The notes under the pieces: model-generated
What the model was told of the DNA's origin: nothing
Database searches by the model: none
What the model saw: only the letters and a program-made list of their open reading frames with translations
Translations under genes and position numbers: made by a program
Shown: positions 2,665 through 63,065 of the stretch, one piece after another
Position numbering within the stretch: the first letter of the stretch is position 1
Layout of the letters: each line of letters begins with the position of its first letter
Assembly (NCBI GenBank): GCA_934754475.1
Contig: CAKVHV010000002.1
Coordinates: forward strand, 951-64,950
DNA length: 64,000 nucleotides
Reading direction: 5' to 3'
Source: an uncultured Clostridia bacterium
GTDB lineage: Bacteria > Bacillota > Clostridia > Christensenellales > UBA1242

Positions 2665-3252
2665 TTAATTTTTTATTTTTTGTTCATTCTTTTTTATAAG
2701 TTCGCTCGTTGTATAAATTTGTGTCACTTCAAAATTTGTTGGATTTAATGCTTTTAGGTCATTGTAAAGTTGTTCAGAAATAACCATTTGAGCTCCATCT
2801 TTTATATAGAAAAAATTATAGTTATTTGGTATATTATTTATAATTACACTCTTTATAGCTGTTCCCAAAACTCCATCCATTACACTATTTTCTCTATCTA
2901 GCACATCTATTTTATACTTTGTCCTTAGAATATAGTATGGTTTTAAAATCCCTTCATCTTTTGCAAAACACTTGTAAAATTCTATTTCATCAGAATATTT
3001 TTCTTTAAGCATCGTATATATTCTTTCAGAAACTATAAGTTCAGCCCAGTCGTTAAGTAGAAAATCTGATATGGGTTCGTCATTTTTATAACTCTTATCT
3101 CTTTCAAAGATGATTGGAGTGTTAGAAAACCCCTTAAACGATTTTCCAATATCCATAAATTCATAATATTCAACATATGGTTCATAATCATTTAAAAAGT
3201 TTGCATACTTTTTTGCACAATTTGTTACTAATCTAATTTCAAAATATTTCAT
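2665..3252 (-). CDS. Hypothetical protein, weakly resembling Imm11/DUF1629-type immunity proteins
   Basis: 195-aa ORF with an ATG start. The segments ..ELIVSERIYTMLKE..EIEF.. and ..MVISEQLYNDLKAL..NFEV.. recall the DUF1629 pattern. The family assignment is from memory only. Confidence 0.4.
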   Translation of the reverse strand: MKYFEIRLVTNCAKKYANFLNDYEPYVEYYEFMDIGKSFKGFSNTPIIFERDKSYKNDEPISDFLLNDWAELIVSERIYTMLKEKYSDEIEFYKCFAKDEGILKPYYILRTKYKIDVLDRENSVMDGVLGTAIKSVIINNIPNNYNFFYIKDGAQMVISEQLYNDLKALNPTNFEVTQIYTTSELIKKNEQKIKN

Positions 3253-3350
3253 CTATTAATTCTCTCTTATCTCCAAAATACCTTATATTTACTATCTGGA
3301 TTATTCATAACTTTGTTAAATGTTTTAATTTAATCATTTGTTATCCTGAA

Positions 3351-3998
3351 TTATTTCAATTTATCTTGTTCTTCTTGCGGAATCTCCCAGTCTATATCTC
3401 CCCAAAAAGAATTTGCAATTGCCGGAATCTTTCTACACCACTTTTCTTTGTTTGGGTGTTTGCGATAACCATTTTCATCATATTCTGGAGTTAAATATTT
3501 AAAATAATAATCCATCAATTCTTTTATTGAATTAAAGACTTTAATAGGTTCTACTATTCCATTTGGCGAAACATATATTTTTGGATTGTTAATCTCAGAT
3601 TGTTTATAATAAAAATTATAATTTCCCACTCCGCCAAAAAACACAATATCATCCAAAATTTGCTTGGAAATTTTTTTATCGGTTATTTCTTGATGTTTAT
3701 TGTAATCATTCAAAAAGAACTCCATAGGTCTCGACACCCCTACACCCAATCCATATATAACTATAGAAGAAATAAATAAACGACAACCATTGTAGAATTT
3801 ATAAAATTCTTTTAATTCTGGCAACAACACTATATTGTATGTTTTTTCAAAATTATCATAATAATTCTTATCAATTTTTTTACATAGATAGTGCAAATAT
3901 GTCTCACCTGATATTTCTTTCATGACAACATAAACTTTACCTTCATCGTTGTCTTTCTCTAATTTCCATTTCTTTTGCAATAACTCATCTAAGTACAT
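3351..3998 (-). CDS. SMI1/KNR4 (SUKH-1) family protein, immunity-protein-like
   Basis: LPELKEFYKFYNG and FFGGVGNYNFYY motifs are typical of SMI1/KNR4. ATG 3998 follows GGAGAG by 6 nt, so it is preferred over the TTG 4010 of the ORF track. Confidence 0.6.
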   Translation of the reverse strand: MYLDELLQKKWKLEKDNDEGKVYVVMKEISGETYLHYLCKKIDKNYYDNFEKTYNIVLLPELKEFYKFYNGCRLFISSIVIYGLGVGVSRPMEFFLNDYNKHQEITDKKISKQILDDIVFFGGVGNYNFYYKQSEINNPKIYVSPNGIVEPIKVFNSIKELMDYYFKYLTPEYDENGYRKHPNKEKWCRKIPAIANSFWGDIDWEIPQEEQDKLK

Positions 3999-4098
3999 AA
4001 TTCTCTCCAAAAAGTCTAATTTTGTCCATTACACAAGTATCCCTAACAATATATCTTTTATTTAGACTCATCCAAAATCCGTTTATTGACAACCATCA

Positions 4099-4485
4099 TT
4101 AATTTTTTACCACAATCCAACCAGCACCATTACTTCTTGAAACTTTTATTGGTTTAATTTGATTAACTCTATCTAGCCAAATAAGAGTACAATATTTCTT
4201 TTGAAGAGTTGCTTGCCAATTTTCAAACTTTTCTGTACCAATTTCTTTGCCATATTTTATTCTTATATCTTCAACAATTTCTGGTGTTAGTTCAAAGTAT
4301 TTAACGTCTTTAACTTTTGCAGTTGCTGTAACATCTTTGCAAGTTTCTTTTAGCAGTATCTCATCTCCAATTTTTACTTTGTTATATGGAGCAACTTTGT
4401 GCATACTCCACCTACTCTCAATTGTTTTTGTACCACTTAAAACCATATCAAAAAATGGCTGTCTTAAGATTGCAATATGTTGCAT
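4099..4485 (-). CDS. ASCH (PUA-like) domain protein
   Basis: N-terminus MQHIAILRQPFFDMVLSGTKTIESRW is typical of ASCH domains. 128 aa. Confidence 0.65.
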   Translation of the reverse strand: MQHIAILRQPFFDMVLSGTKTIESRWSMHKVAPYNKVKIGDEILLKETCKDVTATAKVKDVKYFELTPEIVEDIRIKYGKEIGTEKFENWQATLQKKYCTLIWLDRVNQIKPIKVSRSNGAGWIVVKN

Positions 4486-5063
4486 AAAGTCTCCTTAAAA
4501 ATATTCTCATTGCCTTTGTAACACAAAGGGTTTGCGGGTGATGTGTGATAAATTGGAATAGCTATTTTGGTTTTGTCTCCAATCTTTATTTCAAATATTT
4601 TGCCTACCACTCTGCAAAGTTTATCTATTTTTATGTCAAGTATGGTTTCTGTTGGATGTTTTCCCATAGGAAGAATAATGTCAAAATCATAATTTTCAAG
4701 TTGTTTAAGTAGTATTGGTTTGCAATTTTGAGAACACTCTCGAAGTCTTTTCCTATCTTCTATTATACATTTACAGACTTCTGTAAAATACACATCATCC
4801 AGCGTCAATCCACACAAATTCAATAATCGCTCAAGTACTTTTCCAGTAGATTGCAATTTTCCATTTATATTATAAAATGCTTTTTTTGAAACAATCCAAC
4901 CATCCTTTGCGGGAGACTCACCCAAAATTAGAATTTTGGATTTTCCAGTTTTCATTGAATCGCATTTCAATTTTGGCAAACTACCACATTTATTACAATC
5001 TTCTATTACCTTTAAAATATCGTCGTTATCTTGAGATTTCTTTATCAATGAATTTTCTAACAT
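4464..5063 (-). CDS. Uracil-DNA glycosylase superfamily protein (family 4/5-like)
   Basis: ILILGESPAKDGW resembles UDG motif A and IYHTSPANP resembles motif B. ATG 5063 chosen (the track uses TTG 5072). It overlaps the 3' end of the upstream gene by 38 nt. Confidence 0.55.
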   Translation of the reverse strand: MLENSLIKKSQDNDDILKVIEDCNKCGSLPKLKCDSMKTGKSKILILGESPAKDGWIVSKKAFYNINGKLQSTGKVLERLLNLCGLTLDDVYFTEVCKCIIEDRKRLRECSQNCKPILLKQLENYDFDIILPMGKHPTETILDIKIDKLCRVVGKIFEIKIGDKTKIAIPIYHTSPANPLCYKGNENIFKETLCNILQS

Positions 5064-5397
5064 ATTCTTCAACCTTATCTTTCAATAATTCAAATCTTTC
5101 TTTTACATTAGCTTTGTTTTGGTCTGGTTGCTTGACAACACTATTTGAGTAATCTAAGTCGTAATCAAACTGCTCTTTTGTTAAGTCGACCACATGATTA
5201 TTTATTACATTAAAATAATGAGATTCAATATTATGCCTACATATATCTCCACCAAAGTAATACTGCACAAGCAATGCTGTAGGCACACATTGTCCACAAG
5301 TCGGATTCTCTTTGCTCCATTTGTCTTGCCAGTCAGGATGTGCAGTTTCCTTTGAATATACTTCCAACAAAATTTTTTTCAATTCGTCAATTGTCAT
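5026..5397 (-). CDS. Small conserved protein, YunG-like, function unknown
   Basis: 123 aa. NPTCGQCVPTALLVQYYFGGDI..HYFN..VVDLTKEQF resembles YunG-type proteins (from memory). Confidence 0.4.
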   Translation of the reverse strand: MTIDELKKILLEVYSKETAHPDWQDKWSKENPTCGQCVPTALLVQYYFGGDICRHNIESHYFNVINNHVVDLTKEQFDYDLDYSNSVVKQPDQNKANVKERFELLKDKVEEYVRKFIDKEISR

Positions 5398-9525: not shown

Positions 9526-9748
9526 ATTATCCCCCATAAGATAATTGTATTATATCACAAAACATTTTAAATTTAAATAAAAAACCACCTTATATTTATA
9601 ATTTATTCTTCACATTATTAAATGTGTTGATTAAATAAACATAATCATCACACACAAGTCCAGTTGCACAAAAAAAGATACCTATAAGGCATCATTTTGG
9701 TGCGGATAAATGGATGTGTATTAAGGAGACACATTGTCGACGTCAATT

Positions 9749-9792
9749 CTCGGGTGGCAGACATGTTCCATGGCTGACGAGTTCCCGAGTAC
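9749..9792 (-). other. Conserved 44-nt nested-hairpin motif, copy 1 of 3
   Basis: The minus-strand sequence gtaCTCGGGaactcgtCAGccatggaacatgtCTGccaCCCGAG is identical (44/44) to 12019-12062. 26 of 44 positions are G/C. Confidence 0.7.
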
Positions 9793-9860
9793 AATGCACG
9801 GAAGTGCTGGTAAGTCTCTCTTGAGACTTGTGTGCATTGCACACTCAAATCCAGTTGCAC

Positions 9861-9884
9861 AAAAAAAGATACCTATAAGGTATC
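9861..9884 (-). terminator. Terminator of tRNA-Leu(GAG)
   Basis: On the minus strand: gatacct-tat-aggtatc hairpin followed by T7. Confidence 0.6.
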
Positions 9885-9888
9885 ATTT

Positions 9889-9972
9889 TGGTGCGGATAA
9901 CTGGATTTGAACCAGCACGGGTCTCCCCACAAACACCTCAAGCTTGCGCGTCTGCCATTCCGCCATATCCGC
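9889..9972 (-). tRNA. tRNA-Leu(GAG)
   Basis: Manual cloverleaf. Acceptor GCGGATA/TATCCGC, anticodon arm CAAGC-TTGAGGT-GTTTG, long variable arm, T-loop TTCAAAT, encoded CCA. 84 nt. Confidence 0.9.
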
Positions 9973-11550: not shown

Positions 11551-11768
11551 TAATTTCTCTTAACTCGTACAACTAAATATGGCCTATTAGCTCAGTAGGC
11601 GCGACGCGTTAATAAATTTTGCCAGTGGCAAGATTTTAGCCAAAGCGGGAGACACTTTAGGTGTCGACGGAAGAGTTTACTCTACCTACGCTCACTAGCA
11701 ACTCTGACTGATAGTTTATATAATTCCCTTAACTCGTACAACTTAATATGGCCTATTAGCTCAGTAGG
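11551..11768 (+). repeat. Direct repeats (11551-11599 and 11721-11768) around a 121-nt GC-rich insert. The upstream repeat ends in an orphan 19-nt tRNA-Lys 5' fragment
   Basis: taatt(t)c(t/c)cttaactcgtacaact(a/t)aatatggcctattagctcagtagg occurs twice. The second copy continues into the intact tRNA-Lys; the first runs into cgcgacgcgtt... Confidence 0.85.
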
Positions 11769-11828: not shown

Positions 11829-11911
11829 GCGGATGTGGCGAAATTGGCAGACGCACCAGACTTAGGATCTGGCGGGAAACCATGGGGGTTCAAGTCCTCT
11901 CATCCGCACCA
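11829..11911 (+). tRNA. tRNA-Leu(UAG)
   Basis: Acceptor GCGGATG/CATCCGC, anticodon arm CCAGA-CTTAGGA-TCTGG, long variable arm, encoded CCA. 83 nt. Confidence 0.9.
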
Positions 11912-11917
11912 AAAAAT

Positions 11918-11939
11918 GCACCATTTACGGTGCTTTTTT
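11918..11939 (+). terminator. Terminator of the tRNA cluster
   Basis: gcacc-atttac-ggtgc hairpin followed by T6. The same hairpin recurs at 12114-12135. Confidence 0.65.
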
Positions 11940-12018
11940 GTTTCTTTATTCGCGTCCTTTAGTGCTTGACAGCACTTTGATTATTGCATAATCAGAACCC
12001 CCACTTTCCATGGGGAAG

Positions 12019-12062
12019 GTACTCGGGAACTCGTCAGCCATGGAACATGTCTGCCACCCGAG
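12019..12062 (+). other. Conserved 44-nt nested-hairpin motif, copy 2 of 3
   Basis: Outer stem CTCGGG/CCCGAG. Inner stem CAGCCATG/CATGTCTG has one C.T mismatch. Confidence 0.7.
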
Positions 12063-12213
12063 ATATATTCCTTTCAGGCATATAGACAAGTCCTCTCATC
12101 CGCACCAAAAAATGCACCTTTTACGGTGCTTTTTTGTTTCTTCATTCGCGTCCTTTAGTGCTTGTCAGCACTTTGATTATTGCATAATCAGAACCCCCAC
12201 TTCCATGGGGAAG

Positions 12214-12257
12214 GTACTCGGGAACTCGTCAGGCATGATACATGCCTGCCACCCGAG
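12214..12257 (+). other. Conserved 44-nt nested-hairpin motif, copy 3 of 3
   Basis: Same outer stem. The inner stem is now a perfect CAGGCATG/CATGCCTG, because both partners of the mismatched pair have changed. Confidence 0.7.
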
Positions 12258-12390
12258 ATATATTCTTTTCAGTCATATAAACAAGACTCTTCTCCCTACA
12301 TTACAAAATGAAACAAATAATTTTCAAAACCTATTGAAATTAGATAATTTGTATGATAAAATACTCAAAGAAAAAACTTGGGGGAAAATT

Positions 12391-18479: not shown

Positions 18480-19807
18480 TAACCATTCTCCTTGTCTGAT
18501 TTGCTTCTAAGTATAATTCTAATTGGAGTGCCTTTGAAATCAACCGCATTACGAATACAATTTTCCAAATATCTCAAATATGAAAAGTGCATAAGTTCCT
18601 TGTCATTAACAAAGACAATAAAAGTTGGTGGAGCGACGTCGGCTTGAGTCATGTAATAAATCTTGCATCTCTTTCCCTTTTGAATTGGTGGTTCGTTGAC
18701 AGCAACAGCATTAGTAATTATTTCGTTAAGCATGCTTGTGCCAATTCTAAAATTAGATTTAGCATAAACTTGTTCGACATTTTCCATAATTTTATTTAGT
18801 CTTTGACCAGTCAAAGCAGATACATAAACTGGAACAAAGTAACTCATAAATTTAAGGTCTTCATTCAAATCATCATTAAATTTATTCATCGAATATGAGT
18901 CTTTTTCAATCAAATCCCACTTGTTCATAACAACAATGCTAGGCTTTCCTTCTTCGTGAATAAATCCGGCTATACGTGTATCTTGTTCGGATAGTCCACT
19001 ACTTGCATCAACAACCAACAAAACCACATCTGCTCTACGAATAGCATCAAAAGCCCTAAGAACACTATAAAGTTCTACACTTTCGTTAGGAACAGACCTT
19101 TTTCGTCTAATTCCTGCGGTATCTATTAGCAAATATTCCTTTCCATTATAATTAAATGGTGTATCAATTGCATCTCTAGTAGTTCCGGCAACCGAACTAA
19201 CCATAACCCTATTTTCACCAAGTAATTTATTAATAATTGAACTTTTGCCAGCATTTGGCTTTCCTACAACAGCAATTTTAATCTTTTTGGCATCTTCTTC
19301 GGCAGAAATCTTAGTTTTAAAATATTTAACACATTCGTCCAAAATATCCCCAAGACCCTTGTTATTTTCCGCACTGCAAGCAAAAGGTTCGCCTAGCCCT
19401 AAGGAATAAAATTCATAAGTATTTTCAACTTGATTATTGTCTAGTTTGTTAACAACAAGCACAACTGGAACATTGTATTTTCTCAAAAAATTTGCGACAT
19501 CATAGTCTGCCGACACCAAACCTTCCTTGCCATCAACCATAAAGATAACAACATCGGCTAGTTCAACAGCAATTTCCGCTTGACGAGTTATATTATTTTG
19601 AAACTCGTCTTTGTTTTTTATATCCAAACCACCAGTATCTACAATAGAAAAAGCATAGCCACACCATTCGGCATCACCATAAATTCTATCTCGAGTAACC
19701 CCCGGCATATCTTTGACAATACTAATTCGTCTACCACAAATAGTGTTAAAAAAAGTACTTTTTCCAACATTTGGTCTACCAATCAAAGCAACTAATGGTT
19801 TTCGCAT
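18479..19807 (-). CDS. der: Ribosome-associated GTPase Der (EngA)
   Basis: Two GTPase domains (GRPNVGKST and GKPNAGKSS, DTGG and DTAG, NKLD and NKWD) plus a KH-like C-terminus. Confidence 0.95.
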   Translation of the reverse strand: MRKPLVALIGRPNVGKSTFFNTICGRRISIVKDMPGVTRDRIYGDAEWCGYAFSIVDTGGLDIKNKDEFQNNITRQAEIAVELADVVIFMVDGKEGLVSADYDVANFLRKYNVPVVLVVNKLDNNQVENTYEFYSLGLGEPFACSAENNKGLGDILDECVKYFKTKISAEEDAKKIKIAVVGKPNAGKSSIINKLLGENRVMVSSVAGTTRDAIDTPFNYNGKEYLLIDTAGIRRKRSVPNESVELYSVLRAFDAIRRADVVLLVVDASSGLSEQDTRIAGFIHEEGKPSIVVMNKWDLIEKDSYSMNKFNDDLNEDLKFMSYFVPVYVSALTGQRLNKIMENVEQVYAKSNFRIGTSMLNEIITNAVAVNEPPIQKGKRCKIYYMTQADVAPPTFIVFVNDKELMHFSYLRYLENCIRNAVDFKGTPIRIILRSKSDKENG

Positions 19808-20083
19808 CTTATTTCTCCTTATTCCTTTTTTGATAAGTATAATCTAGGAAGATTAAACAAAGTCGTCCCCACGGACACCTTGTTTTAATCTGACGAAGTT
19901 TTCAATCTATATGCCCACGATTTATCGTGGTTGTTGCTTTTTAAAGCAACGTGAGATTTGGTGCAACCTAATTTCACTTTTACACATTCCTTATCACACA
20001 TTCCTTATGATTATTGATTATATTATCGGAAGTTGTCGGCAAGCAGCCCAAAGGGATATTTGCCAGCAACTGATGTTTATTCA

Positions 20084-20166
20084 ATCTATGTAACCACGAT
20101 TTATCGTGGTGTTTGCGATAGCAAATTGTTTTGTGAATGTAATGAACAAAGCAATATCACATAGAT
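20084..20166 (+). ncRNA. Candidate structured RNA module, family C type B
   Basis: Closing stem atctatgt/acatagat encloses three hairpins: CCACGA..TCGTGG, TTTGC-gata-GCAAA and TTGTTTTGT-N11-ACAAAGCAA (one G.U). Confidence 0.45.
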
Positions 20167-20234
20167 TATAATCTAGGAAGATTAAACAAAGTCGTCCCCA
20201 CAGGACACCTTGTTTTAATCTGACGACGTTTTCA

Positions 20235-20319
20235 ATCTATATGTCCACGATTTATCGTGGTTGTTGCTTTTTAAAGCAACGTGAAATTTGGTGCAACCTA
20301 ATTTCACTAACATATAGAT
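20235..20319 (+). ncRNA. Candidate structured RNA module, family C type A
   Basis: Closing stem atctatatg/catatagat encloses three hairpins: CCACGA..TCGTGG, GTTGCTTT-tt-AAAGCAAC and GTGAAATT-N11-AATTTCAC. Confidence 0.45.
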
Positions 20320-20423
20320 TATAACATATGTGCAAAAAAAACAATACTTTTTTTGAAAACAAATTCAATTAAATTTATAATATCTATATCAAAACAAAAA
20401 AATCGGCAAAAAATGCCGACTGA

Positions 20424-21527
20424 TTATTTTTTCTGACTAACATTTTTATTCTTTAGATTTTTGTAAAAAACAAAGAAAGTAGATACACAAACACCCGCTG
20501 AGAGAATTATTACAACAGAAATTGCAAACAATTCACTTTTGTTGTTTTCTTTTGATTCCAAAGCCTTGTTTATAACCTTGTTTTCTTTGTCTTCGACACC
20601 ATTAATTGTTAATTCCCCACTTGTGTTATTTACTGTCGTGTTATAAAGCGATGTTGTAATAACATCAGACAATTCCTTCATGCTATCCAAAAGCAAATCT
20701 TTTTCACACAAGTGTGAACCCATTTCAAATAGTATCGCCTTGCTACTGAGTTCTTGGTTATAATGTCCCCTTGCATAATAAATATCTGTAAAGAGCCAAG
20801 GATAAAGTTCATTTCCGACAGTCATAAGATATGTAGCAAATTCTTCGTTAAGTTTCATGTTTGGGTTTGCTTTCCCTACAACTATTCGAACTCTTCCACG
20901 TTCTTTGCCGTCAATGTTTGTTACATAGTATTTTCTACTTGCACCATCTCTATGTATATCAAAAATCGCATCGGGACTATATTGGGAAATCAAATTTTTG
21001 GCGGTTTTGACACTACGTGAATATGCTTGAGTATCATGTGGAATATGCAAAGTGTCATTAAGATAAACATCAATCATATTTTTTTCCAACTCACTTTTGA
21101 GTGCCAACGCAACATCCTTTATGCCACCATTTCCATAAACACTATCCACACCATCAGTTGGAACATAACTTTCGTCATTATGAGTCATGTACATGCAGAT
21201 AGTTCGCTTTTCAACTTTGATAGGTGCTGGAAGATAAGATTTTTCAATTTTGGGCTTTTCTACATCTCTTACAAATTTTGCAATTCCCTTGTGACTATCT
21301 TTATCAAGATAAATGATTTCGTAATACTTAAAGTCGTTAGACATATAACTATCACCAATTTCAACTTCATCTCTTTCAAATAACAAGTTGAAATTTTCAT
21401 CATAGATTGAGTAAATTGGCATATCACTTTCAAAAAAATCCAAAGCATATATGTCGCTTCTCAAACTACTTAAGCACATTACAAACATTATTACTACAAG
21501 CGATAATATTACAGAAATTTTTTTCAT
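20424..21527 (-). CDS. spoIIP: Stage II sporulation protein P
   Basis: N-terminal TM anchor, then MYMTHNDESY and FDIHRDG motifs as in SpoIIP amidase/peptidase. Strong GGAG RBS before ATG 21527. A second TM helix at the C-terminus. Confidence 0.75.
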   Translation of the reverse strand: MKKISVILSLVVIMFVMCLSSLRSDIYALDFFESDMPIYSIYDENFNLLFERDEVEIGDSYMSNDFKYYEIIYLDKDSHKGIAKFVRDVEKPKIEKSYLPAPIKVEKRTICMYMTHNDESYVPTDGVDSVYGNGGIKDVALALKSELEKNMIDVYLNDTLHIPHDTQAYSRSVKTAKNLISQYSPDAIFDIHRDGASRKYYVTNIDGKERGRVRIVVGKANPNMKLNEEFATYLMTVGNELYPWLFTDIYYARGHYNQELSSKAILFEMGSHLCEKDLLLDSMKELSDVITTSLYNTTVNNTSGELTINGVEDKENKVINKALESKENNKSELFAISVVIILSAGVCVSTFFVFYKNLKNKNVSQKK

Positions 21528-26547: not shown

Positions 26548-26973
26548 TTATTTAATATAAATTCGAAATTTAACATTTTCAAATTTTGGCTTTTTCTTGG
26601 ACTTTTTGAGTGCAATAATTGTTTGAACTGCTTGATTTAAACCTACTAACAACAAAAATACTGCAAAGATTTTTTGAAGCAACTTATTACTAAGAATACT
26701 AGCCAAATATGAGCCGAAAACCGAAAATGCAACCCCGCTAATTATTATTGGAATTCCCACTTTGAAATCGACTAATTTATTTTTGATATGGATAATCAAA
26801 GCAACCAAAGACATCGGGATAAACACAAGCAAGTTAATTGCTTGAGCACTTTTTTGTTTGAATGACAAAAAAATCGTTAAAATTGGAATAAGCAAAGTTC
26901 CACCGCCCATTCCCATTCCACCTACAATTCCACTCACAAGCCCCGCCAGAAATAACCACAAAAATTCCATCAT
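26548..26973 (-). CDS. TSUP (TauE/SafE) transporter, C-terminal half-size subunit
   Basis: Four predicted TM helices. FLAGLVSGIVGGMGMGGGTLLIPIL motif. Confidence 0.7.
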   Translation of the reverse strand: MMEFLWLFLAGLVSGIVGGMGMGGGTLLIPILTIFLSFKQKSAQAINLLVFIPMSLVALIIHIKNKLVDFKVGIPIIISGVAFSVFGSYLASILSNKLLQKIFAVFLLLVGLNQAVQTIIALKKSKKKPKFENVKFRIYIK

Positions 26974-27413
26974 ATAAGCAATTTTATTCCCCCAGCAATA
27001 ATGATTACACTAAATATTATTCCAAGCCATAAGTTGCTAATAAATTTGAGTACTATTGCACCTATTAGACCGCCAGCAACAAAACCTGCACCTATTTTAA
27101 GTGCATTTATTATTTCCAAATTCCCACTTATCAGATAAACTATTAGACTTGCTAAACTCAAAGGCAACATAATAAGCAAAGTAGTTGCGTGGGCTTTCTT
27201 TTCGGGAAGTTTGATAATCTGCATCAAAAGTGGCACACAAATCATTCCACCACCACCGCCCCAAAATCCGTTAACAAAGCCAATTAATGCACCTGTTAGT
27301 AGTTTTACAAAGGTCGAATTGTTTGACTTATTTTCGTTTGGACTATACGAAATCTCATATTCCATTCCGCCAAACATGTCATTATGTTTGCTATTAATAG
27401 AAAAATTTTTCAT
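26970..27413 (-). CDS. TSUP (TauE/SafE) transporter, N-terminal half-size subunit
   Basis: Four predicted TM helices. LTGALIGFVNGFWGGGGGMICVPLL motif. Its stop overlaps the next start (ATGA). Confidence 0.7.
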   Translation of the reverse strand: MKNFSINSKHNDMFGGMEYEISYSPNENKSNNSTFVKLLTGALIGFVNGFWGGGGGMICVPLLMQIIKLPEKKAHATTLLIMLPLSLASLIVYLISGNLEIINALKIGAGFVAGGLIGAIVLKFISNLWLGIIFSVIIIAGGIKLLI

Positions 27414-27494: not shown

Positions 27495-27538
27495 TTGGAA
27501 AATAATTCCAATAAATTTGGAAAATAATTCCAATAAAT
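27495..27538. promoter_or_regulatory. Two exact tandem 22-bp units, each containing the palindrome TTGGAA-N5-TTCCAA (candidate operator)
   Basis: ttggaaaataattccaataaat occurs twice, head to tail, in the divergent intergenic region. Confidence 0.4.
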
Positions 27539-27540
27539 GA

Positions 27541-27675
27541 ATCTATGTTACATGCTTTGTTAATTTCATTCACAAATCAACTTGCTATCGCAAATTCCAC
27601 GATTAAATCGTGGTAACATAGATTGATAAACATCAGTTTTGCTTGAAAATGACTTCGTCGCTTTCAGACAAAACT
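27541..27675 (-). repeat. Single family C module (type B) in inverted orientation
   Basis: Core at 27541-27623: closing stem atctatgtta/taacatagat, CCACGA-ttta-TCGTGG and TTTGC-gata-GCAAA on the minus strand. The leader shares ctgatgtttatcaatctatg with 20070-20090. Confidence 0.85.
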
Positions 27676-27908
27676 TTTAATAAATTTGAAAAATGTTTTC
27701 AATATAAATGGAAGTTATTTTCAAAAGTGTAAGATAAATTTTTAAGATAAAATAAAATTTATATTCAAAAAAATTGTCTACTATGTATAACTTATATATT
27801 TAATTAATTATAAATAACCTTTAAAATACCCTAAAATTACTTGAATAGAAAATTAAAATAGTATATAATTACTAGGTGTAACAAATTAATAAAAAAGGTG
27901 AACAATCT

Positions 27909-30900
27909 ATGTCAAACACTAAAAATTACAAAATAAAAAGTATAATTTGTAGCATGTTATTATGCTTTGCTATGATAATCTCTGCATTTGTCGGAATTAA
28001 TTTTAAGGCAAATGATGTTGTTATGGCTGATGACGGCTCAAATTATAGAGTAGTAAATGTCTCTAGCGATTTGCTTAGCAGTTATTACAACTTTAATACA
28101 ACTTCATCCACAAGGTCTGCTCCTGCAACTCCAAATGGTTGGTCAGTAATTACTGGGGTTGGAAATCAAGTTAACAAAGATAATATTCTAAATGGTATTG
28201 TTGATTTAACTGATGACACAACTTTTTCAACTTCGACTTTCAAGACTTCAAGACCAAAGAACATTTTGGAAAATATAACTTCGGATACCGCTTATTACAA
28301 AAACCTTATGATTAATTCTCATAATGGCGCTGGTAGACTTGGTTACAAGAGCAATTCAATGAACTTGGAAGCAAATAGTTATTACTCTATTTCGGTTAGA
28401 CTATATACAAATCGTACCGAAAAAACAGATAACTACGACGAAACTGATGCATATGCTTCAATTTATCTAAGTGGACTTGAAACAGAAGACTCTCAAGAAA
28501 ACCAAGTTAAGTTCGAAAATATCAACACTTTGGAATCTTGGGTTGACTACACTTTCTACATCGACACTTTTGATAGTGCAAGTGTAAATCTTGAACTTTG
28601 GTTAGGAAGCAAGACAAGTAATGTTCAAGGTGCAGTATTCTTTAATAACGTAACAATCTATAGATATAGCGAAGATTATTACAAAGAATATATTCTAACA
28701 AAATCAGATACCGAAGAAGACAATCACAATATTCTATCTTTTTCTAAATCGTACACCGAACCAGTAACAAATAGTAGTTTTGAAACAACTACTCCACTTG
28801 GCTGGACTAACATTGCAAAAAGCACAACCGATGCCGAAACTCAAAAATGTCAAATTGTTGACGTTAACAATTACACTCTAAAAGATGATGATACTACAGT
28901 TTCTGCACCACGTTCTAACAACTCTGCAAATAATAACCATGCTTTGTTTATGTACAACAAAGAAGAAGGCTATCAAGCAGTAGAGAGTTCAAAATTTACA
29001 ATCGAACAATTAACATACTACAAAGTATCATTCTTTGCTAAATCTAATTGTGGAACTGGCACTGGTGCGACTGTATATTTGGTTGACAAATCAGAAAACG
29101 ATGCAATTGATAGTGCCAAATTAACTTTGGCTACAACTTTTACAAAAAATTCTAACGTTTATCGCAACGACTGGACACAATATAGTTTTTATGTTTATGG
29201 CGACGAACTAGCAGATAAGGAAGTTGCTTTACAAATTTGGTTGGGTACAAACTCAAGCAAAACCAAAGGTTATGTATTTGTAGACGACTTTAGAATGGAA
29301 AAAGTTTCTTATCAAACTTTCTCAAACAATTCTAGTTCTTCAAATTCAACTTCACTTAATTTCAATAACGAAAGTGCAAGTTTTGTAGTTATTAACTCAA
29401 ACTTCAACAAAACTCAAAACGAAGACTACAATACCACTTACCCACTAGCACCAAGCAACTGGGCAAAATCTGGAGATACTAATAGTAACACATTTAGTGG
29501 CGTAATCAAGGCTAATGCCGAACATTTTGATGCTAACAAATCTAGTTATACAAATACTTCAATTGTTCCATCAAGACCAGCAAATCACCCTATTTATGGC
29601 GATAATAACAACGTTTTGATGATTGGAAGCACAAACGAAAACAATACTCAATCTTATGAAAGTGATAGCATGACACTTAGTTCAAATAGTTATTACAAAC
29701 TAAGTTTCTATGTATTCACCGATTATTTCAAGAGCAACCTTAATAACAATGGTGCAAGAGTTACCCTTAAGAATAGTTCAAGAGTATTATTTGATTATCA
29801 AAATATCTGTTTTACTGACAATGGTTGGCACTTATTTGAAACATATATCAAAACTGGAAACAACTCCGAAAATGCTAATTTGTTCCTAGCATTTGAAAAA
29901 ACAACTGGTTATGTATATTTTGACGATATTAAGTTGGAAACAACTAAGGAAGCAATTTATAATAACTTTACAAAACAACCAAATGTGATTTACTCAAAAG
30001 TTGATTTGAGTTTTGAAAACTTTGATAACAAGACATTCAATACAAATACAAAAATTCAAACTCCAAACAACTGGGATGGTGCTGGACAAGATTCAGATAC
30101 CCCAACCGAAAGCGGAATAATTAGCATGGATAACGATAGTCTTGCACTTATTCCACCTACTCTATCTGGCAACAAAAATGTGCTTATGATTAATAGTTTG
30201 CATAATGTAAATTATGCCTATACTAGCAAAGAAAGTTTCAACTTTGCATCAAAAACATATTACAAAATCACTGTTAATGTTCTTACAAACAACCTTGTAG
30301 CCGAGAATACCGAAGATAGCGAAGGCTATGGCGCAAGCATCATTTTGAATGGTTCAAAAGATATTATTGTCAAAGGCATTAATACAAATGGTGTATGGAA
30401 GACATTTACAATTTATCTAAGTAGCGAAGATGCTATTAATAGCACAATTTCACTAGGACTTGGCGCTACCAACCAAAAGATTAGCGGAATGGTTTTGTTT
30501 GATAATCTCAAAATCGAAACCACTGACCAAGATACTTTCCTTGAAGATTTGAAAACAACTGATGACGACTACACCAAGTGTTTCATCAACTACACCGAAC
30601 AGACCGAAACCAACGAAGAAGAATCAACTTGGTCAAATGAATTTAACTGGCTAATTCTTCCAAGTTTAATTACTGCACTTGCAATTATTATTGCTGTACT
30701 TGGATTCTATGTAAGAAAGATTAACTTTAGTAAAAAGCCAAAAATCAAAACAAAATACGATAGAAGAAAGACTCTTGACAAAGACATCGACAAACGTGAA
30801 AGAATTGTTCTTAGACAACAGATTATTGATGAATTGAATGCCGAACTCAAATCAATAGATGACGAAATCGAAGAGTACAATAGATTATCCGCTCAAAAAC

Positions 30901-31451
30901 TCGAAGAAATGAAAGCTCAAATCTTGGAAGAAAAACAAGTTATTGAACGTCAAAAACTAGAAATCGAGATTAAGAAGAAAGAAGCAACTGCCGAACGTGA
31001 AAAACAACTAAAAGCAAATCCAGAACTTGTAAGCAATGTTAAGGCAGAAAAAGAATTTGAAAAATTACTCTCTCATCTTGACAAACAAGAAATGAGTTTG
31101 CAAAAACAAATTAATCAAAAAGATGTCAAACTTGAATCTACAAAAGAAGCAGATAAATCTAAACTTTCAAAATTCTTAGAAAGAAAAGAATTTATCAAGA
31201 ACGAAATTGCTAAGATTGAAGCCGAAATCGAAGAGATTGCCAAAGAAGAAGCTGAAATGTGGGAAGAATACAAGAAAGCTAAGATGGAAGCAAAACAAAG
31301 AAAAGCCGAAATCAAAGCTGAAAAAGCATGTCAGCCCCCTGCAAAATCTACAAAAAAGAAATCAATTACCAAACCAGCGGATTCAAAAACAACTCAAGAT
31401 GAAGCAAAAGTTAGTCAAGAACAAAATAGTTCTAACGACAAAAACAACTAA
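27909..31451 (+). CDS. Large type I membrane protein: four CBM-like jelly-roll modules outside, one TM helix, ~250-aa coiled-coil tail inside
   Basis: Signal/anchor at aa 10-35. Four ~180-200-aa modules share NxLMIN, YYK(I/L/V)S, W..F..Y and G.V.F(D/N)(D/N) motifs. TM helix WLILPSLITALAIIIAVLGFYV. K/E-rich heptad-like tail. Confidence 0.7.
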   Translation: MSNTKNYKIKSIICSMLLCFAMIISAFVGINFKANDVVMADDGSNYRVVNVSSDLLSSYYNFNTTSSTRSAPATPNGWSVITGVGNQVNKDNILNGIVDLTDDTTFSTSTFKTSRPKNILENITSDTAYYKNLMINSHNGAGRLGYKSNSMNLEANSYYSISVRLYTNRTEKTDNYDETDAYASIYLSGLETEDSQENQVKFENINTLESWVDYTFYIDTFDSASVNLELWLGSKTSNVQGAVFFNNVTIYRYSEDYYKEYILTKSDTEEDNHNILSFSKSYTEPVTNSSFETTTPLGWTNIAKSTTDAETQKCQIVDVNNYTLKDDDTTVSAPRSNNSANNNHALFMYNKEEGYQAVESSKFTIEQLTYYKVSFFAKSNCGTGTGATVYLVDKSENDAIDSAKLTLATTFTKNSNVYRNDWTQYSFYVYGDELADKEVALQIWLGTNSSKTKGYVFVDDFRMEKVSYQTFSNNSSSSNSTSLNFNNESASFVVINSNFNKTQNEDYNTTYPLAPSNWAKSGDTNSNTFSGVIKANAEHFDANKSSYTNTSIVPSRPANHPIYGDNNNVLMIGSTNENNTQSYESDSMTLSSNSYYKLSFYVFTDYFKSNLNNNGARVTLKNSSRVLFDYQNICFTDNGWHLFETYIKTGNNSENANLFLAFEKTTGYVYFDDIKLETTKEAIYNNFTKQPNVIYSKVDLSFENFDNKTFNTNTKIQTPNNWDGAGQDSDTPTESGIISMDNDSLALIPPTLSGNKNVLMINSLHNVNYAYTSKESFNFASKTYYKITVNVLTNNLVAENTEDSEGYGASIILNGSKDIIVKGINTNGVWKTFTIYLSSEDAINSTISLGLGATNQKISGMVLFDNLKIETTDQDTFLEDLKTTDDDYTKCFINYTEQTETNEEESTWSNEFNWLILPSLITALAIIIAVLGFYVRKINFSKKPKIKTKYDRRKTLDKDIDKRERIVLRQQIIDELNAELKSIDDEIEEYNRLSAQKLEEMKAQILEEKQVIERQKLEIEIKKKEATAEREKQLKANPELVSNVKAEKEFEKLLSHLDKQEMSLQKQINQKDVKLESTKEADKSKLSKFLERKEFIKNEIAKIEAEIEEIAKEEAEMWEEYKKAKMEAKQRKAEIKAEKACQPPAKSTKKKSITKPADSKTTQDEAKVSQEQNSSNDKNN

Positions 31452-41880: not shown

Positions 41881-41957
41881 GGGGGTATAGCTCAGTTGGC
41901 TAGAGCACCTGCCTTGCAAGCAGGGGGTCAAGAGTTCGAGTCTCTTTATCTCCACCA
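41881..41957 (+). tRNA. tRNA-Ala(UGC)
   Basis: G3.U70 pair, anticodon loop CTTGCAA, encoded CCA. Confidence 0.9.
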
Positions 41958-41962
41958 TATAT

Positions 41963-42039
41963 AGAGATGTAGCTCAGCAGGTTAGAGCACCACCCTGATA
42001 AGGTGGGGGTCGGTGGTTCGAGTCCACTCATCTCTACCA
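41963..42039 (+). tRNA. tRNA-Ile(GAU)
   Basis: Acceptor AGAGATG/CATCTCT, anticodon arm CCACC-CTGATAA-GGTGG, encoded CCA. Confidence 0.9.
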
Positions 42040-58206: not shown

Positions 58207-58884
58207 ATGTTTTTAATCAAGAAAAATTGGTTTGATTTGCTCAAAAGCGAGTTTGAATCAAATTCATACAGAGAACTAGAAAATTGGCTAAACCACGAGT
58301 ATCAAACCAAGATAATATATCCCAAACCAGAAAATGTATTTAATGCACTTAATCTTGTTAAATATAATGATGTCAAGGTAGTTATTATTGGGCAAGACCC
58401 TTATCACAACCCAAACCAAGCACATGGGCTTTCGTTTTCGGTCGAAAATGATGTAGCAATTCCACCATCGCTTCAAAATATTTACAAGGAATTACATGAC
58501 GATTTGGGCTGTTATATTCCAAACAACGGAAATCTAACAAAATGGGCAAAGCAAGGAGTACTACTACTCAATAGCGTTTTGACAGTTGAGCAAAACAAAC
58601 CCAATAGTCACAAAAACAAAGGCTGGGAAAAAATAACTGGCAAAGTTGTCGAACTACTAAATCAAAGAACTGACCCCGTTGTATTTTTGCTTTGGGGTTC
58701 AAATGCAAAAGCGATTGGCAAAAATATAGATAGAAGCAAGCACTATGTTTTGGAAGCAGCACACCCAAGCCCTATGAGTGCAAATCAAGGTGGCTGGTTT
58801 GGTTGTCATCATTTTAGCAAGACGAATGAAATTCTCAAGAAACTTAACAAAACTCCAATTGATTGGCAAATTGAAAATATTTAA
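58207..58884 (+). CDS. ung: Uracil-DNA glycosylase, family 1
   Basis: GQDPYH and HPSPMSA motifs. AAGGAG RBS. Confidence 0.9.
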   Translation: MFLIKKNWFDLLKSEFESNSYRELENWLNHEYQTKIIYPKPENVFNALNLVKYNDVKVVIIGQDPYHNPNQAHGLSFSVENDVAIPPSLQNIYKELHDDLGCYIPNNGNLTKWAKQGVLLLNSVLTVEQNKPNSHKNKGWEKITGKVVELLNQRTDPVVFLLWGSNAKAIGKNIDRSKHYVLEAAHPSPMSANQGGWFGCHHFSKTNEILKKLNKTPIDWQIENI

Positions 58885-61211: not shown

Positions 61212-62075
61212 TTATTTTTGGGATAAATACTTAATTGCTTCGGTCGATGCAATTGCACCATCGCTACATGCTGTTACAATTTGACGCAAAGACTTTTTTC
61301 GAATATCTCCAGCGACAAAAACGTTTGCAATATTTGTATGCATGTTTTCGTCTGTAACCAAAAATCCAGAATCATTATTTATACTATCTTTGTACAAATC
61401 TATATTTGTAGTCTTTCCTAAATCGACAAAGATTCCATCACAATCGATGACTTTTTCGCTAATACCAATCATAGCCTTAATACCTTTAACTTTTGTATCG
61501 CCAATTATTTCGATTGGCAAAACATTATGATAACATTCAACTTCGTCAAAATCAAAGCCATTAGACATATCCATTACAACTATGTCACTAGTTAAATTTT
61601 TAAGATACTTAACCGAATTTATGGCAGAGTTGTTTTTTGTAAAAACTATTATTCTTTTGTTTTTATACAAATTACCATCACACACAGCACAATAACTAAG
61701 TCCATGCAACTTAAATTTTTCTTCAGTTTCCAAATTTAAACGTTTATAAGTTGAACCAGAAGCAATTATTAATGTTTTGTATTCAATTGAGTTATTGCCA
61801 GTATGAATGATGTTTTTGTCAAAATCTATGCTATTTATGTGTACAAAATCAAACTTAACGTCAAAATTCAAACATTGTTCATACATTTTGGAAACCAACT
61901 CAAAACCTGAAATATTAGTAAATCCTGGATAATTATCAATATTAGGTAGTGTCGCTGTAGTTCCACCGATATTATTATCTTCGATAATTAAAACAGATTT
62001 GTTTGCTCTTCCGGCATAAATTCCCGCAGTTAATCCCGCAACACCACTGCCAATAATTACAATATCATATAGCAT
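61212..62075 (-). CDS. Thioredoxin-reductase-like flavoprotein with a CAVC redox centre but no NADPH-binding motifs
   Basis: FAD motif IIGSGVAGLTAG, redox-active CAVCDG, C-terminal FVAGD. The positions of GGGNSA and HRRxxxR read FTKNNSA and DMSNGFD. Confidence 0.7.
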   Translation of the reverse strand: MLYDIVIIGSGVAGLTAGIYAGRANKSVLIIEDNNIGGTTATLPNIDNYPGFTNISGFELVSKMYEQCLNFDVKFDFVHINSIDFDKNIIHTGNNSIEYKTLIIASGSTYKRLNLETEEKFKLHGLSYCAVCDGNLYKNKRIIVFTKNNSAINSVKYLKNLTSDIVVMDMSNGFDFDEVECYHNVLPIEIIGDTKVKGIKAMIGISEKVIDCDGIFVDLGKTTNIDLYKDSINNDSGFLVTDENMHTNIANVFVAGDIRKKSLRQIVTACSDGAIASTEAIKYLSQK

Positions 62076-62253
62076 TTTTGTTTTCTCCTTAATTGCCTAT
62101 TTTATAAGATTTTTTGTATTTTGCATAGTACTTATGCATAGTAGTAATAAATAGACTTGATTTAAAATTTATTATACATTGCAAATAAAATCTAGGAAGT
62201 TGAGAGTAACACAAGTGTTTTAAATTTGTATTACCGAAACGACGACGTTTTCA

Positions 62254-62337
62254 ATCTATGTGACCACGATTTCATCGTGGCATTTGCGATAGCAAATTGG
62301 TTTGTGAATGTAATGAACAAAGCAACTTTACATGGAT
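62254..62337 (+). ncRNA. Candidate structured RNA module, family C type B
   Basis: Closing stem atctatgt/acatggat with a U.G pair at 62257/62334. Hairpins as in 20084-20166. Confidence 0.45.
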
Positions 62338-62407
62338 TATAATAATCTAAGAAGATTAAACAAAGTCGTCCGCTAGGACACCTTGATTTAATCTGACGAC
62401 GATTTCA

Positions 62408-62490
62408 ATCTATGTGACCACGATTTTATCGTGGGTTTGCGATAGCAAATTGGTTTGTGAATGCAATGAACAAACCAATATCACATAGAT
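62408..62490 (+). ncRNA. Candidate structured RNA module, family C type B
   Basis: Perfect closing stem and a perfect fourth hairpin, TTGGTTTGT/ACAAACCAA. Confidence 0.45.
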
Positions 62491-62561
62491 TATAACAGAT
62501 TTTATTAATATAAGCAAAAAAAGTTGAACCTAAAAATTCAACTTTTTTTAAAAACAAATAA

Positions 62562-63065
62562 TTAAACTAATTCAATAATTGCCAATTCAGCATTGTCACC
62601 ATTTCTAGTTCCAAGCTTCAAAATTCTAGTATATCCACCGCCAGTGCCAAGTGTTTCTTTTCTCTTAGCATACTTAGGAGCATATACATTAAATATTTTT
62701 TCGATTAGTGGATGCTTAATATCTTCAGTACGTTTAACAAAGTCAGCTTTTGATTCTTTGTCAGCTCTAACTTCTTGGATGTCATACAATTTGCTCATCA
62801 TATCACGTCTAGCAGCTAGTTTCTTAGTACCATCGTTGATAACTTCTCTTTGAGTTTTAACACCTTTTGCATCTACAGTAGTTTTTGTAGTTTTAACTAC
62901 GTCTTCATATGTATTGATTGCTTTTGTCAAAATTTTTTCAGCATAAGCTCTAACTTCTTTTGCTTTTTCAAGAGTTGTCTCGATTTTTCCGTACCAAAGA
63001 AGATTTGTAGCAAGACTACGCATTACAGCCATTCTTTCGTCTGTAGGTCTATTTAATTTTCTCAT
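62562..63065 (-). CDS. rplQ: 50S ribosomal protein L17 with internal expansion (167 aa)
   Basis: MRKLNRPTDERMAVMRSLATNLL..KIETTLEKAKE and GGGYTRILKLGTRNGDNAELAIIELV frame an extra ~45-50 aa. Confidence 0.9.
   Translation of the reverse strand: MRKLNRPTDERMAVMRSLATNLLWYGKIETTLEKAKEVRAYAEKILTKAINTYEDVVKTTKTTVDAKGVKTQREVINDGTKKLAARRDMMSKLYDIQEVRADKESKADFVKRTEDIKHPLIEKIFNVYAPKYAKRKETLGTGGGYTRILKLGTRNGDNAELAIIELV

Follow-up and report, generated by a model that had tools for sequence, protein, structure and literature searches.

In a 64-kb stretch of a gut metagenome contig (ENA ERZ27286994, 208 kb; uncultured Clostridia lineage, about 31% GC), the whole of which is referred to below as the window, the spacer between rplQ and a trxB-like flavoprotein gene holds two head-to-tail units of about 153 nt, spanning 62192-62493, each consisting of a leader and a core of about 90 nt (table 1). 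The two cores start 153 nt apart on the + strand, and in the fold of each an 11-bp closing stem, CAATCTATGTG/CACATAGATT, encloses three hairpins. The first-pass annotation had placed two cores of one orientation here, and the model search recovers both; the individual pairs it had named (T62257.G62334, G62453-C62475 and T20129.G20151) read in the sequence as claimed. Unit 2 does have the leader hairpin of about 40 nt that had been described, with GTCC-gcta-GGAC at its loop against GTCC-ccac-GGAC at 19.8 kb, and unit 1 does have a different leader (Lc, against La in unit 2); the Lc type also precedes cores in four of the related loci, L024, L025, L026 and L028. Compared with dinucleotide shuffles, the whole units fold with z-scores of -3.3 (unit 1) and -7.5 (unit 2). 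TATAAT can be read on both strands at the junction between the units because ATTATAAT is palindromic; this junction, which makes up TGAACA-18-TATAAT on the + strand together with the end of core 1, recurs at 20165-20172. On a - strand reading the trxB-like gene lies downstream of the array, and the terminator hairpin after rplQ is kept in relatives with filled and with empty sites alike.

Table 1. Positions of the arrays, their parts and the neighboring features in the window.
Feature	Position	Strand	Description and evidence
trxB-like flavoprotein gene	61212-62075	-	Pfam Pyr_redox_2, E 1e-29
Unit 1 leader, type Lc	62192-62250	+	Starts CTAGGAAG, imperfect hairpin, then small GAAACGACGACGTTTTC hairpin/linker; sequence and fold
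Core 1, type B, four-way junction with three hairpins	62251-62340	+	Closing stem 62253-62263/62328-62338; model R1 104 bits, E 2e-23; fold
Inter-unit junction ATTATAATAAT	62336-62346		Includes palindrome ATTATAAT; sequence
Unit 2 leader, type La	62347-62403	+	CTAAGAAG, 42-nt hairpin 62353-62394, linker GACGACGATT; sequence and fold
Core 2, type B	62404-62493	+	Closing stem 62407-62417/62481-62491; model R1 108 bits, E 3e-24; fold
Promoter-like host site, reads into the array toward trxB	62489-62517	-	TTGCTT 62512-62517, 17-nt spacer, TG 62496-62497, TATAAT 62489-62494
Bidirectional terminator hairpin after rplQ	62516-62549		A-run, GTTGAA...TTCAAC, T-run; sequence
rplQ, ribosomal protein L17	62562-63065	-	Pfam Ribosomal_L17
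Sister array, three units, between der and spoIIP	19845-20326	+	R1 cores
Sister-array core, type A, 3' arm lost	19901-19990	+	R1
Sister-array core, type B	20080-20169	+	R1
Sister-array core, type A	20231-20322	+	R1
Solitary unit, leader Lb2 and type B core 27538-27627	27538-27690	-	R1 91 bits

A covariance model, R1, was built from 15 cores, and scanning the window with filters off returned exactly six cores at three loci: three at 19.8-20.3 kb, two at 62251-62493, and one at 27.5 kb. A 22-nt pattern of the 5' part of the core likewise occurs six times in the window, with 0.02 occurrences expected by chance. The earlier list of copies was thus right for the five cores at 19.8 and 62 kb and had overlooked the sixth (27538-27627, - strand). 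The sister array ends on its right in ATTATAACA (20318-20326), which is TGTTATAAT on the - strand, and contains a 330-nt duplication. The solitary unit sits in a divergent spacer between a half-size TauE gene and an open reading frame of 1180 aa. As an observation on these neighbors, the TauE/SafE exporter (26548-27413, - strand) is present as a pair of half-size genes lying side by side in swapped order, of which the first corresponds to profile positions 120-237 and the second to 1-113, and the 1180-aa reading frame (27909-31451, + strand) has no Pfam match at E <= 0.001.

Relatives were surveyed as metagenome-assembly loci with 8-kb flanks. R1 recognizes 24 cores from 12 sources in related MAG loci, and the units occur at a minimum of ten unrelated loci in several species, so the dispersal that had been suggested from two neighborhoods covers three loci of the window and ten or more across related MAGs. 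A strict core pattern run against three public collections gave seven true matches in four MAG species labelled Clostridia, Clostridiales or Christensenellales, and also three JGI/ENA metagenome contigs that are orthologues of the MAG loci; it found nothing in viral contigs, and BLAST of the array against plasmids and phages gave no match. Judged with this strict sequence pattern, the range of the family is narrow, about four related Clostridia MAG species, and the family appears to be undescribed. Searches for known RNAs gave the same picture: Rfam 15 at gathering threshold recovers tRNAs alone over the whole window, nothing above 19 bits at 62080-62570 with E up to 10, and no matches at 19800-20440 with E up to 1, and ARAGORN and the Rfam tRNA model place nine tRNAs in the window and none at the arrays.

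The common unit of the family is about 150 nt long and is composed of a variable leader hairpin, a GACGAnG linker and a core folding as a four-way junction. Core subtypes A to E differ in the sequences of their hairpins and share this architecture, and the fold is conserved through compensatory change. In the alignment of the 24 cores, 94.9% of cells are paired, and changes on both sides of a pair are seen in 15/31 core pairs, spread over all four helices; none of 500 shuffles matches the observed values of pairing and covariation, and sliding the partner columns by 1-3 positions reduces pairing to 32-46%. It should be noted that the core alignment was fitted to the structure, which somewhat inflates the pairing percentage; this does not obscure the compensatory counts or the slid controls. 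The La leader hairpin shows compensatory change in 5/17 pairs among eight copies. The compensatory evidence for which the first-pass annotation had argued from single pairs extends to many pairs of the core and the La leader. Either strand folds strongly and in a self-contained manner.

Leaders are of at least three types, starting at the 5' end with (C)TAGGAAG or CGGAAG and ending at the 3' side with GACGAnGWTT or ACTGATGTTTAT, and leader and core types combine freely; no leaderless core was found among the copies examined. Adjacent units are joined as ...CATAGATTATAAT followed directly by CTAGGAAG..., a joint which includes the palindrome ATTATAAT. These same unit ends, CTAGGAAG... and ...CATAGATTATAAT, are not inverted repeats, and the 11-bp inverted repeat encloses the core alone. 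Units have 31-35% GC and no open reading frame save one by chance. Truncated or degenerate copies are found at 19901, at L024:1906, as unit 1 of L018 and unit 3 of L025, and in L038, and internal deletions also occur.

Orthologous sites differ in the number of units. At rplQ-trxB, the window and L001 (L17 identity 100%) have two units in a spacer of 486 nt, L002 (99%) has three units in 636 nt, and L006-L013 (96%; 180 nt) and L014 and L015 (94%; about 219 nt) have none. At spoIIP-der the three units of the window fill a spacer of 616 nt (Der identity 100%), L038-L040 (99%) have a single degenerate unit in 272 nt, and L041-L044 (88-96%) have a spacer of 136-211 nt without units. The L002 array minus exactly one unit is the window array, with the breakpoint in the conserved TTCAATCTATGTGACC at the 5' end of the neighboring cores; this points to unequal recombination between units, unit number changing by recombination between neighboring cores. 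Leaders vary too: L021 and L031, which share an orthologous site upstream of a Fic-family gene, have the core alike and different leaders. The insertion at trxB may be more complex than a clean one, since the 39 nt to the left of it show only about 60% identity between filled and empty sites, and at the metG locus the relatives found are about 80% identical, beyond alignment, and lack the element. All sequences are metagenome assemblies, in which unit counts may carry assembly error; a MEGAHIT contig (L001), a SPAdes contig (L002) and the L038/L039 scaffolds nevertheless represent independent assemblies that agree on the units. Three Logan short-read contigs from other samples (L003, L004 and L005) stop 113-117 nt past rplQ within the last core, which indicates that the repeat breaks short-read assemblies of this organism.

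The comparison of the trxB-rplQ region between relatives, which the first-pass annotation had proposed, thus yields two, three or no units, and its alternative of a fixed, non-variable spacer without structural conservation does not describe what is found, since the arrays vary and their structure is conserved. Because unit number, leader and presence all vary, and many copies are truncated, the family appears on these comparisons to be a recently active repeat, and to be neither a fixed spacer nor an indispensable RNA gene.

The empty sites also indicate where the arrays lie with respect to transcription signals. On the - strand of the empty trxB site (L006, L013), the rplQ terminator is followed by TTGCTT, 17 nt, TGTTATAAT and then directly by the trxB leader; an identical promoter is intact in the window (62489-62517), where the array starts straight after its TATAAT. 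From this position the predicted promoter would fire on the - strand into the array from its right end, toward trxB. At the der locus TGTTATAAT at 20318-20326 (TGGTATACT in L038) reads into the array in the same way, the corresponding place in empty der sites being TGATATAAT, and there is no room for a further der promoter because the start codon lies 30 nt from the other end of the array. Similar sites are found on the strand opposite to that of the first-pass reading at the arrays of L021 (TTGACT-17-TATAAT), L018 upstream of metG (TTTACA-17-TATAAT) and L028 (TTGAAA-17-TGATATAAT). A TGn extension, or a -35 matching in at least 5/6 positions at 17 nt, accompanies all five independent intact right ends (5/5); by the same criterion this is true of 10% of all 147 TATAAT in the window and 15% of the 47 intergenic ones, a probability of about 7e-5. 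The -35 regions are not alike from one locus to the next and so are host sequence outside the element. Two copies are exceptions: in L025 a strong TTGCAA-17-TATACT on the other strand reads into the array from its left end and the array itself extends into a tRNA gene, and no promoter abuts the solitary unit at 27.5 kb. The arrays at the remaining sites directly follow what we predict to be the -10 hexamer of host promoters that were already in place. Hexamers resembling TATAAT are found on either side of the arrays and at every junction, and a target, a duplication or a sequence carried by the element would all fit this arrangement.

This position bears on the strand that is likely to be transcribed. 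The arrays had been described as antisense to both flanking genes, which is correct as a description, although at trxB and der this orientation probably matters less. The G.U pairs cited in favor of the + strand are present, in 21 cells against 12 cells with A.C; as an argument for that strand this is weak, the cells stemming from few independent events. The + strand does fold better in 16/18 units, by a mean of 3.7 kcal/mol per unit, among copies that are not independent. The + strand as a functional RNA is thereby not established and is in part contradicted: the promoters abutting the right ends read the opposite strand toward trxB and der, which is probably the transcribed one at these two loci, and promoter-like sites of the + strand (TGAACA-18-TATAAT over the type B junctions) are no more frequent than in shuffled sequence.

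We favor, with moderate confidence, the explanation that the family is a lineage-specific, non-autonomous, modular non-coding repeat lying behind -10 boxes and, at most loci, co-transcribed from the host promoter as a structured 5' leader. The suggestion that the element is dispersed and possibly mobile gains support from the ten or more loci, the filled and empty sites and the variation in unit number, and by the same comparisons dispersal and polymorphism extend to near-identical strains; transposition, the enzyme responsible, transcription and any effect on expression are what we infer from these patterns. The element would land at TATAAT-like targets by means of a trans-acting enzyme, and each unit would rebuild the target, so that further units could accumulate in tandem. 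The array at trxB and der would then be transcribed from the host promoter on the strand complementary to that of the first-pass reading, producing a long, self-folding 5' leader that is tolerated by the cell and may alter the stability or yield of the mRNA. The fold may be kept because the mobilizing step needs it, or because the gap between a promoter and an essential gene tolerates only inserts that fold compactly, and recombination between units would reshuffle the arrays. It counts against this mobile leader that the host promoters read the strand with the poorer fold. Scanning 27 window ORFs turned up no transposase, no recombinase and no longer, autonomous copy.

The arrays might instead be cis-regulatory leaders selected by the host, read from the host promoter on the - strand and controlling the expression of trxB, der or metG, for example as an mRNA stabilizer, attenuator or RNase target. 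They do lie between promoter and gene at trxB, der, L018, L021 and L028, their fold is strong and self-contained whichever strand is read, and co-transcribed BOX, Correia, ERIC and BIME repeats have effects of this kind (PMC3049150, PMC2649163). The neighbors, however, share no common function (trxB, der, metG, a Fic protein, TauE, a tRNA), near-identical strains differ in whether they have units and in how many, and the orientation is inconstant (L025 and the 27.5-kb locus), so that an effect on expression would more likely be a by-product than the reason for the element, and we consider selection as a host leader rather unlikely.

Tandem small-RNA genes on the + strand offer another explanation, with each unit expressed from the TATAAT of the preceding junction, starting near GGAAG and giving a hairpin-plus-cloverleaf RNA that acts in trans, for example in protein binding, or in the antisense regulation of the trxB and der leaders. 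The folding preference and the G.U excess given above point in this direction, as do the -35-like TGAACA at 18 nt across the type B junctions, the bidirectional terminators that follow both arrays, and the strong + strand promoter of L025. Such genes are nevertheless unlikely: no terminator separates the units, type A junctions have no -35, by inspection the first unit of most arrays has no convincing + strand promoter, and the predicted promoter-like sites do not exceed those of shuffles. The strand bias comes from few independent substitutions, many copies are degenerate or truncated, and strains with 96% identical L17 have no element, which is hard to fit to a needed RNA. Local tandem duplication (a minisatellite) or an assembly artefact, without mobility, would account for the change between window and L002, which resembles unequal recombination, for the 330-nt duplication at 19.8 kb and for the collapse of short-read contigs at the repeat, and is very improbable given the same units at ten or more unrelated loci in several species, the concurrence of independent assemblies (MEGAHIT L001, SPAdes L002, L038/L039 scaffolds) and a difference of 12-26% among the units of one array, owing to which they are not collapsed copies.

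Returning to the modular mobile repeat, its organization seems closest to that of the BOX elements of Streptococcus pneumoniae and S. suis (boxA-boxB(n)-boxC), which are non-coding, modular and dispersed between genes and are regarded as non-autonomous and parasitic (PMC3049150, PMC3184786); the resemblance is one of organization only. Both have interchangeable modules, a strain-variable tandem number, independently folding stem-loops and co-transcription with neighboring genes, which is predicted here (PMC3049150). Unlike BOX, in which an A/C stem encloses the B hairpins, the present unit is a hairpin plus a four-way junction, and its arrays lie at -10 boxes by the 5' ends of genes, whereas BOX is over-represented between convergent genes.

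In position and relationship to promoters the closest counterpart appears to be the Correia element of Neisseria, a MITE. The two are alike in a length of about 105-155 bp, in filled and empty sites between strains, in the many copies 5' of genes, some of them just downstream of a promoter, and in a -10-like sequence at the ends that makes or keeps promoters, with a structured RNA if co-transcribed (PMC2649163, PMC10969869). They differ in that a Correia element is bounded by 26-bp terminal inverted repeats (TATAG[CT]GGATTA...) and comes with a target-site duplication and an IHF site, and head-to-tail arrays of mixed subtypes belong to the present family and not to Correia. The Correia motif TATAG[CT]GGATTA, at up to two mismatches, has three matches in the window against 5.8 expected by chance, none of them at the arrays. 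Of the features used to recognize MITEs (PMC3184786, PMC3049150), the units of about 150 nt have the small size (below about 400 bp), the AT-richness and the lack of a transposase gene, and also the filled and empty sites and the many dispersed copies (rplQ-trxB and spoIIP-der; at least ten loci). They are not classical MITEs, since the unit ends lack inverted repeats.

Elements of the IS200/IS605 type, with their non-autonomous derivatives, and REP/RAYT systems are mobilized as single strands by a Y1 (HUH) transposase that recognizes subterminal hairpins, and insert 3' of a fixed target of 4-5 nt without duplication. The present family recalls them in the absence of terminal inverted repeats, in the hairpins near both ends, the apparent short AT-rich target and the single orientation per array, an analogy under which the conservation of the fold of one strand would have a mechanistic reason. 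No Y1/HUH transposase was seen among the 27 window ORFs scanned, to our knowledge a four-way junction is not an end structure of IS200/IS605 or REP/RAYT elements, and the better-folding strand at the three loci is not reconciled with the replication-strand rule. In neisserial intergenic mosaic elements (NIMEs) the units are linked through a short conserved repeat, and we know of no covarying four-way junction in them. They are similar to the present family in forming composite arrays of different repeat units, which in NIMEs are 70-200 bp long (PMC3049150), and dissimilar in junction repeat, organisms and genomic position.

Several other identities were considered and rejected. An integron attC array is contradicted by the closing arms CAATCTATGTG/CACATAGATT, which by inspection have no GTTRRRY, and by the lack of an integrase among the neighbors; a Correia element by the absence of its defining repeat at the arrays; and a tRNA or tmRNA by the ARAGORN result there. 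CRISPR or TIGR-like arrays, type III antitoxin repeats and retron ncRNAs do not fit a 153-nt period without spacers and without adjacent cas, toxin or RT genes. The neighboring genes are unrelated and the element is polymorphic, at variance with a riboswitch or T-box, and a self-cleaving ribozyme array was discarded given no Rfam match and loops and junction nucleotides that are not conserved between subtypes. A plasmid, phage or viral origin finds no matches.

As a class of object the family is ordinary; what is unusual is the covarying four-way junction and the tight association with -10 boxes. Since these are foreign to the described MITE, BOX and REP families, the mobilizing mechanism could be new. 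A more far-reaching proposal, which we hold to be doubtful, is mobile DNA of a new kind that seeks out sigma-70 -10 boxes, perhaps because promoter DNA is melted there, through a folded single-stranded intermediate of hairpin and four-way junction, regenerates its own target, accumulates head-to-tail between promoter and gene and so rewrites the 5' leaders of core genes such as der and trxB, or alternatively a new class of functional four-way-junction RNA expressed from the junction TATAAT boxes. If the favored reading holds, a small repeat reshapes the promoter-proximal leaders of the essential genes der, trxB and metG in uncultured, abundant gut Clostridia; arrays that differ between otherwise 99% identical strains would be a ready strain marker and a possible source of strain-to-strain differences in gene expression. 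For the discovery of RNA motifs there is a caution in that strong covariation alone does not prove a dedicated RNA gene.

Tandem repeats of about 191-196 nt adjoin tRNA-Leu genes at 11891-12285 (+) and 9649-9909 (-), and in L025 at about 4800-5250 (-), with no Rfam match. In the copy at 11891-12285, each unit has, in this order, a copy of the final ~20 nt of the tRNA, a terminator hairpin and a GC-rich motif, GGTACTCGGGAAC...GCCACCCGAGA, whose inner hairpin shows compensatory differences between copies (CAGCCAUGG.. vs CAGGCAUGA..); in L025 a similar motif, GGTACTCGGGAACCCGC...CCACCCGAGA, is found after a tRNA. A 45-nt duplication including the 5' part of tRNA-Lys lies at 11555-11599 and 11724-11768, the first tRNA-Lys copy (about 11581-11600) being a truncated fragment followed by unrelated sequence. 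A pair of tRNA-Ala(tgc) and tRNA-Ile(gat), usual in the 16S-23S spacer, is encoded at 41881-42039 (+), and no rRNA was detected in the window. Elsewhere in the 64 kb the uracil-DNA glycosylase superfamily is represented by two separate genes (4464-5072, -; 58207-58884, +), and adjacent Imm11-like and SUKH-1 (SMI1/KNR4) genes at 2665-4010 (-) look like a polymorphic-toxin immunity cluster.
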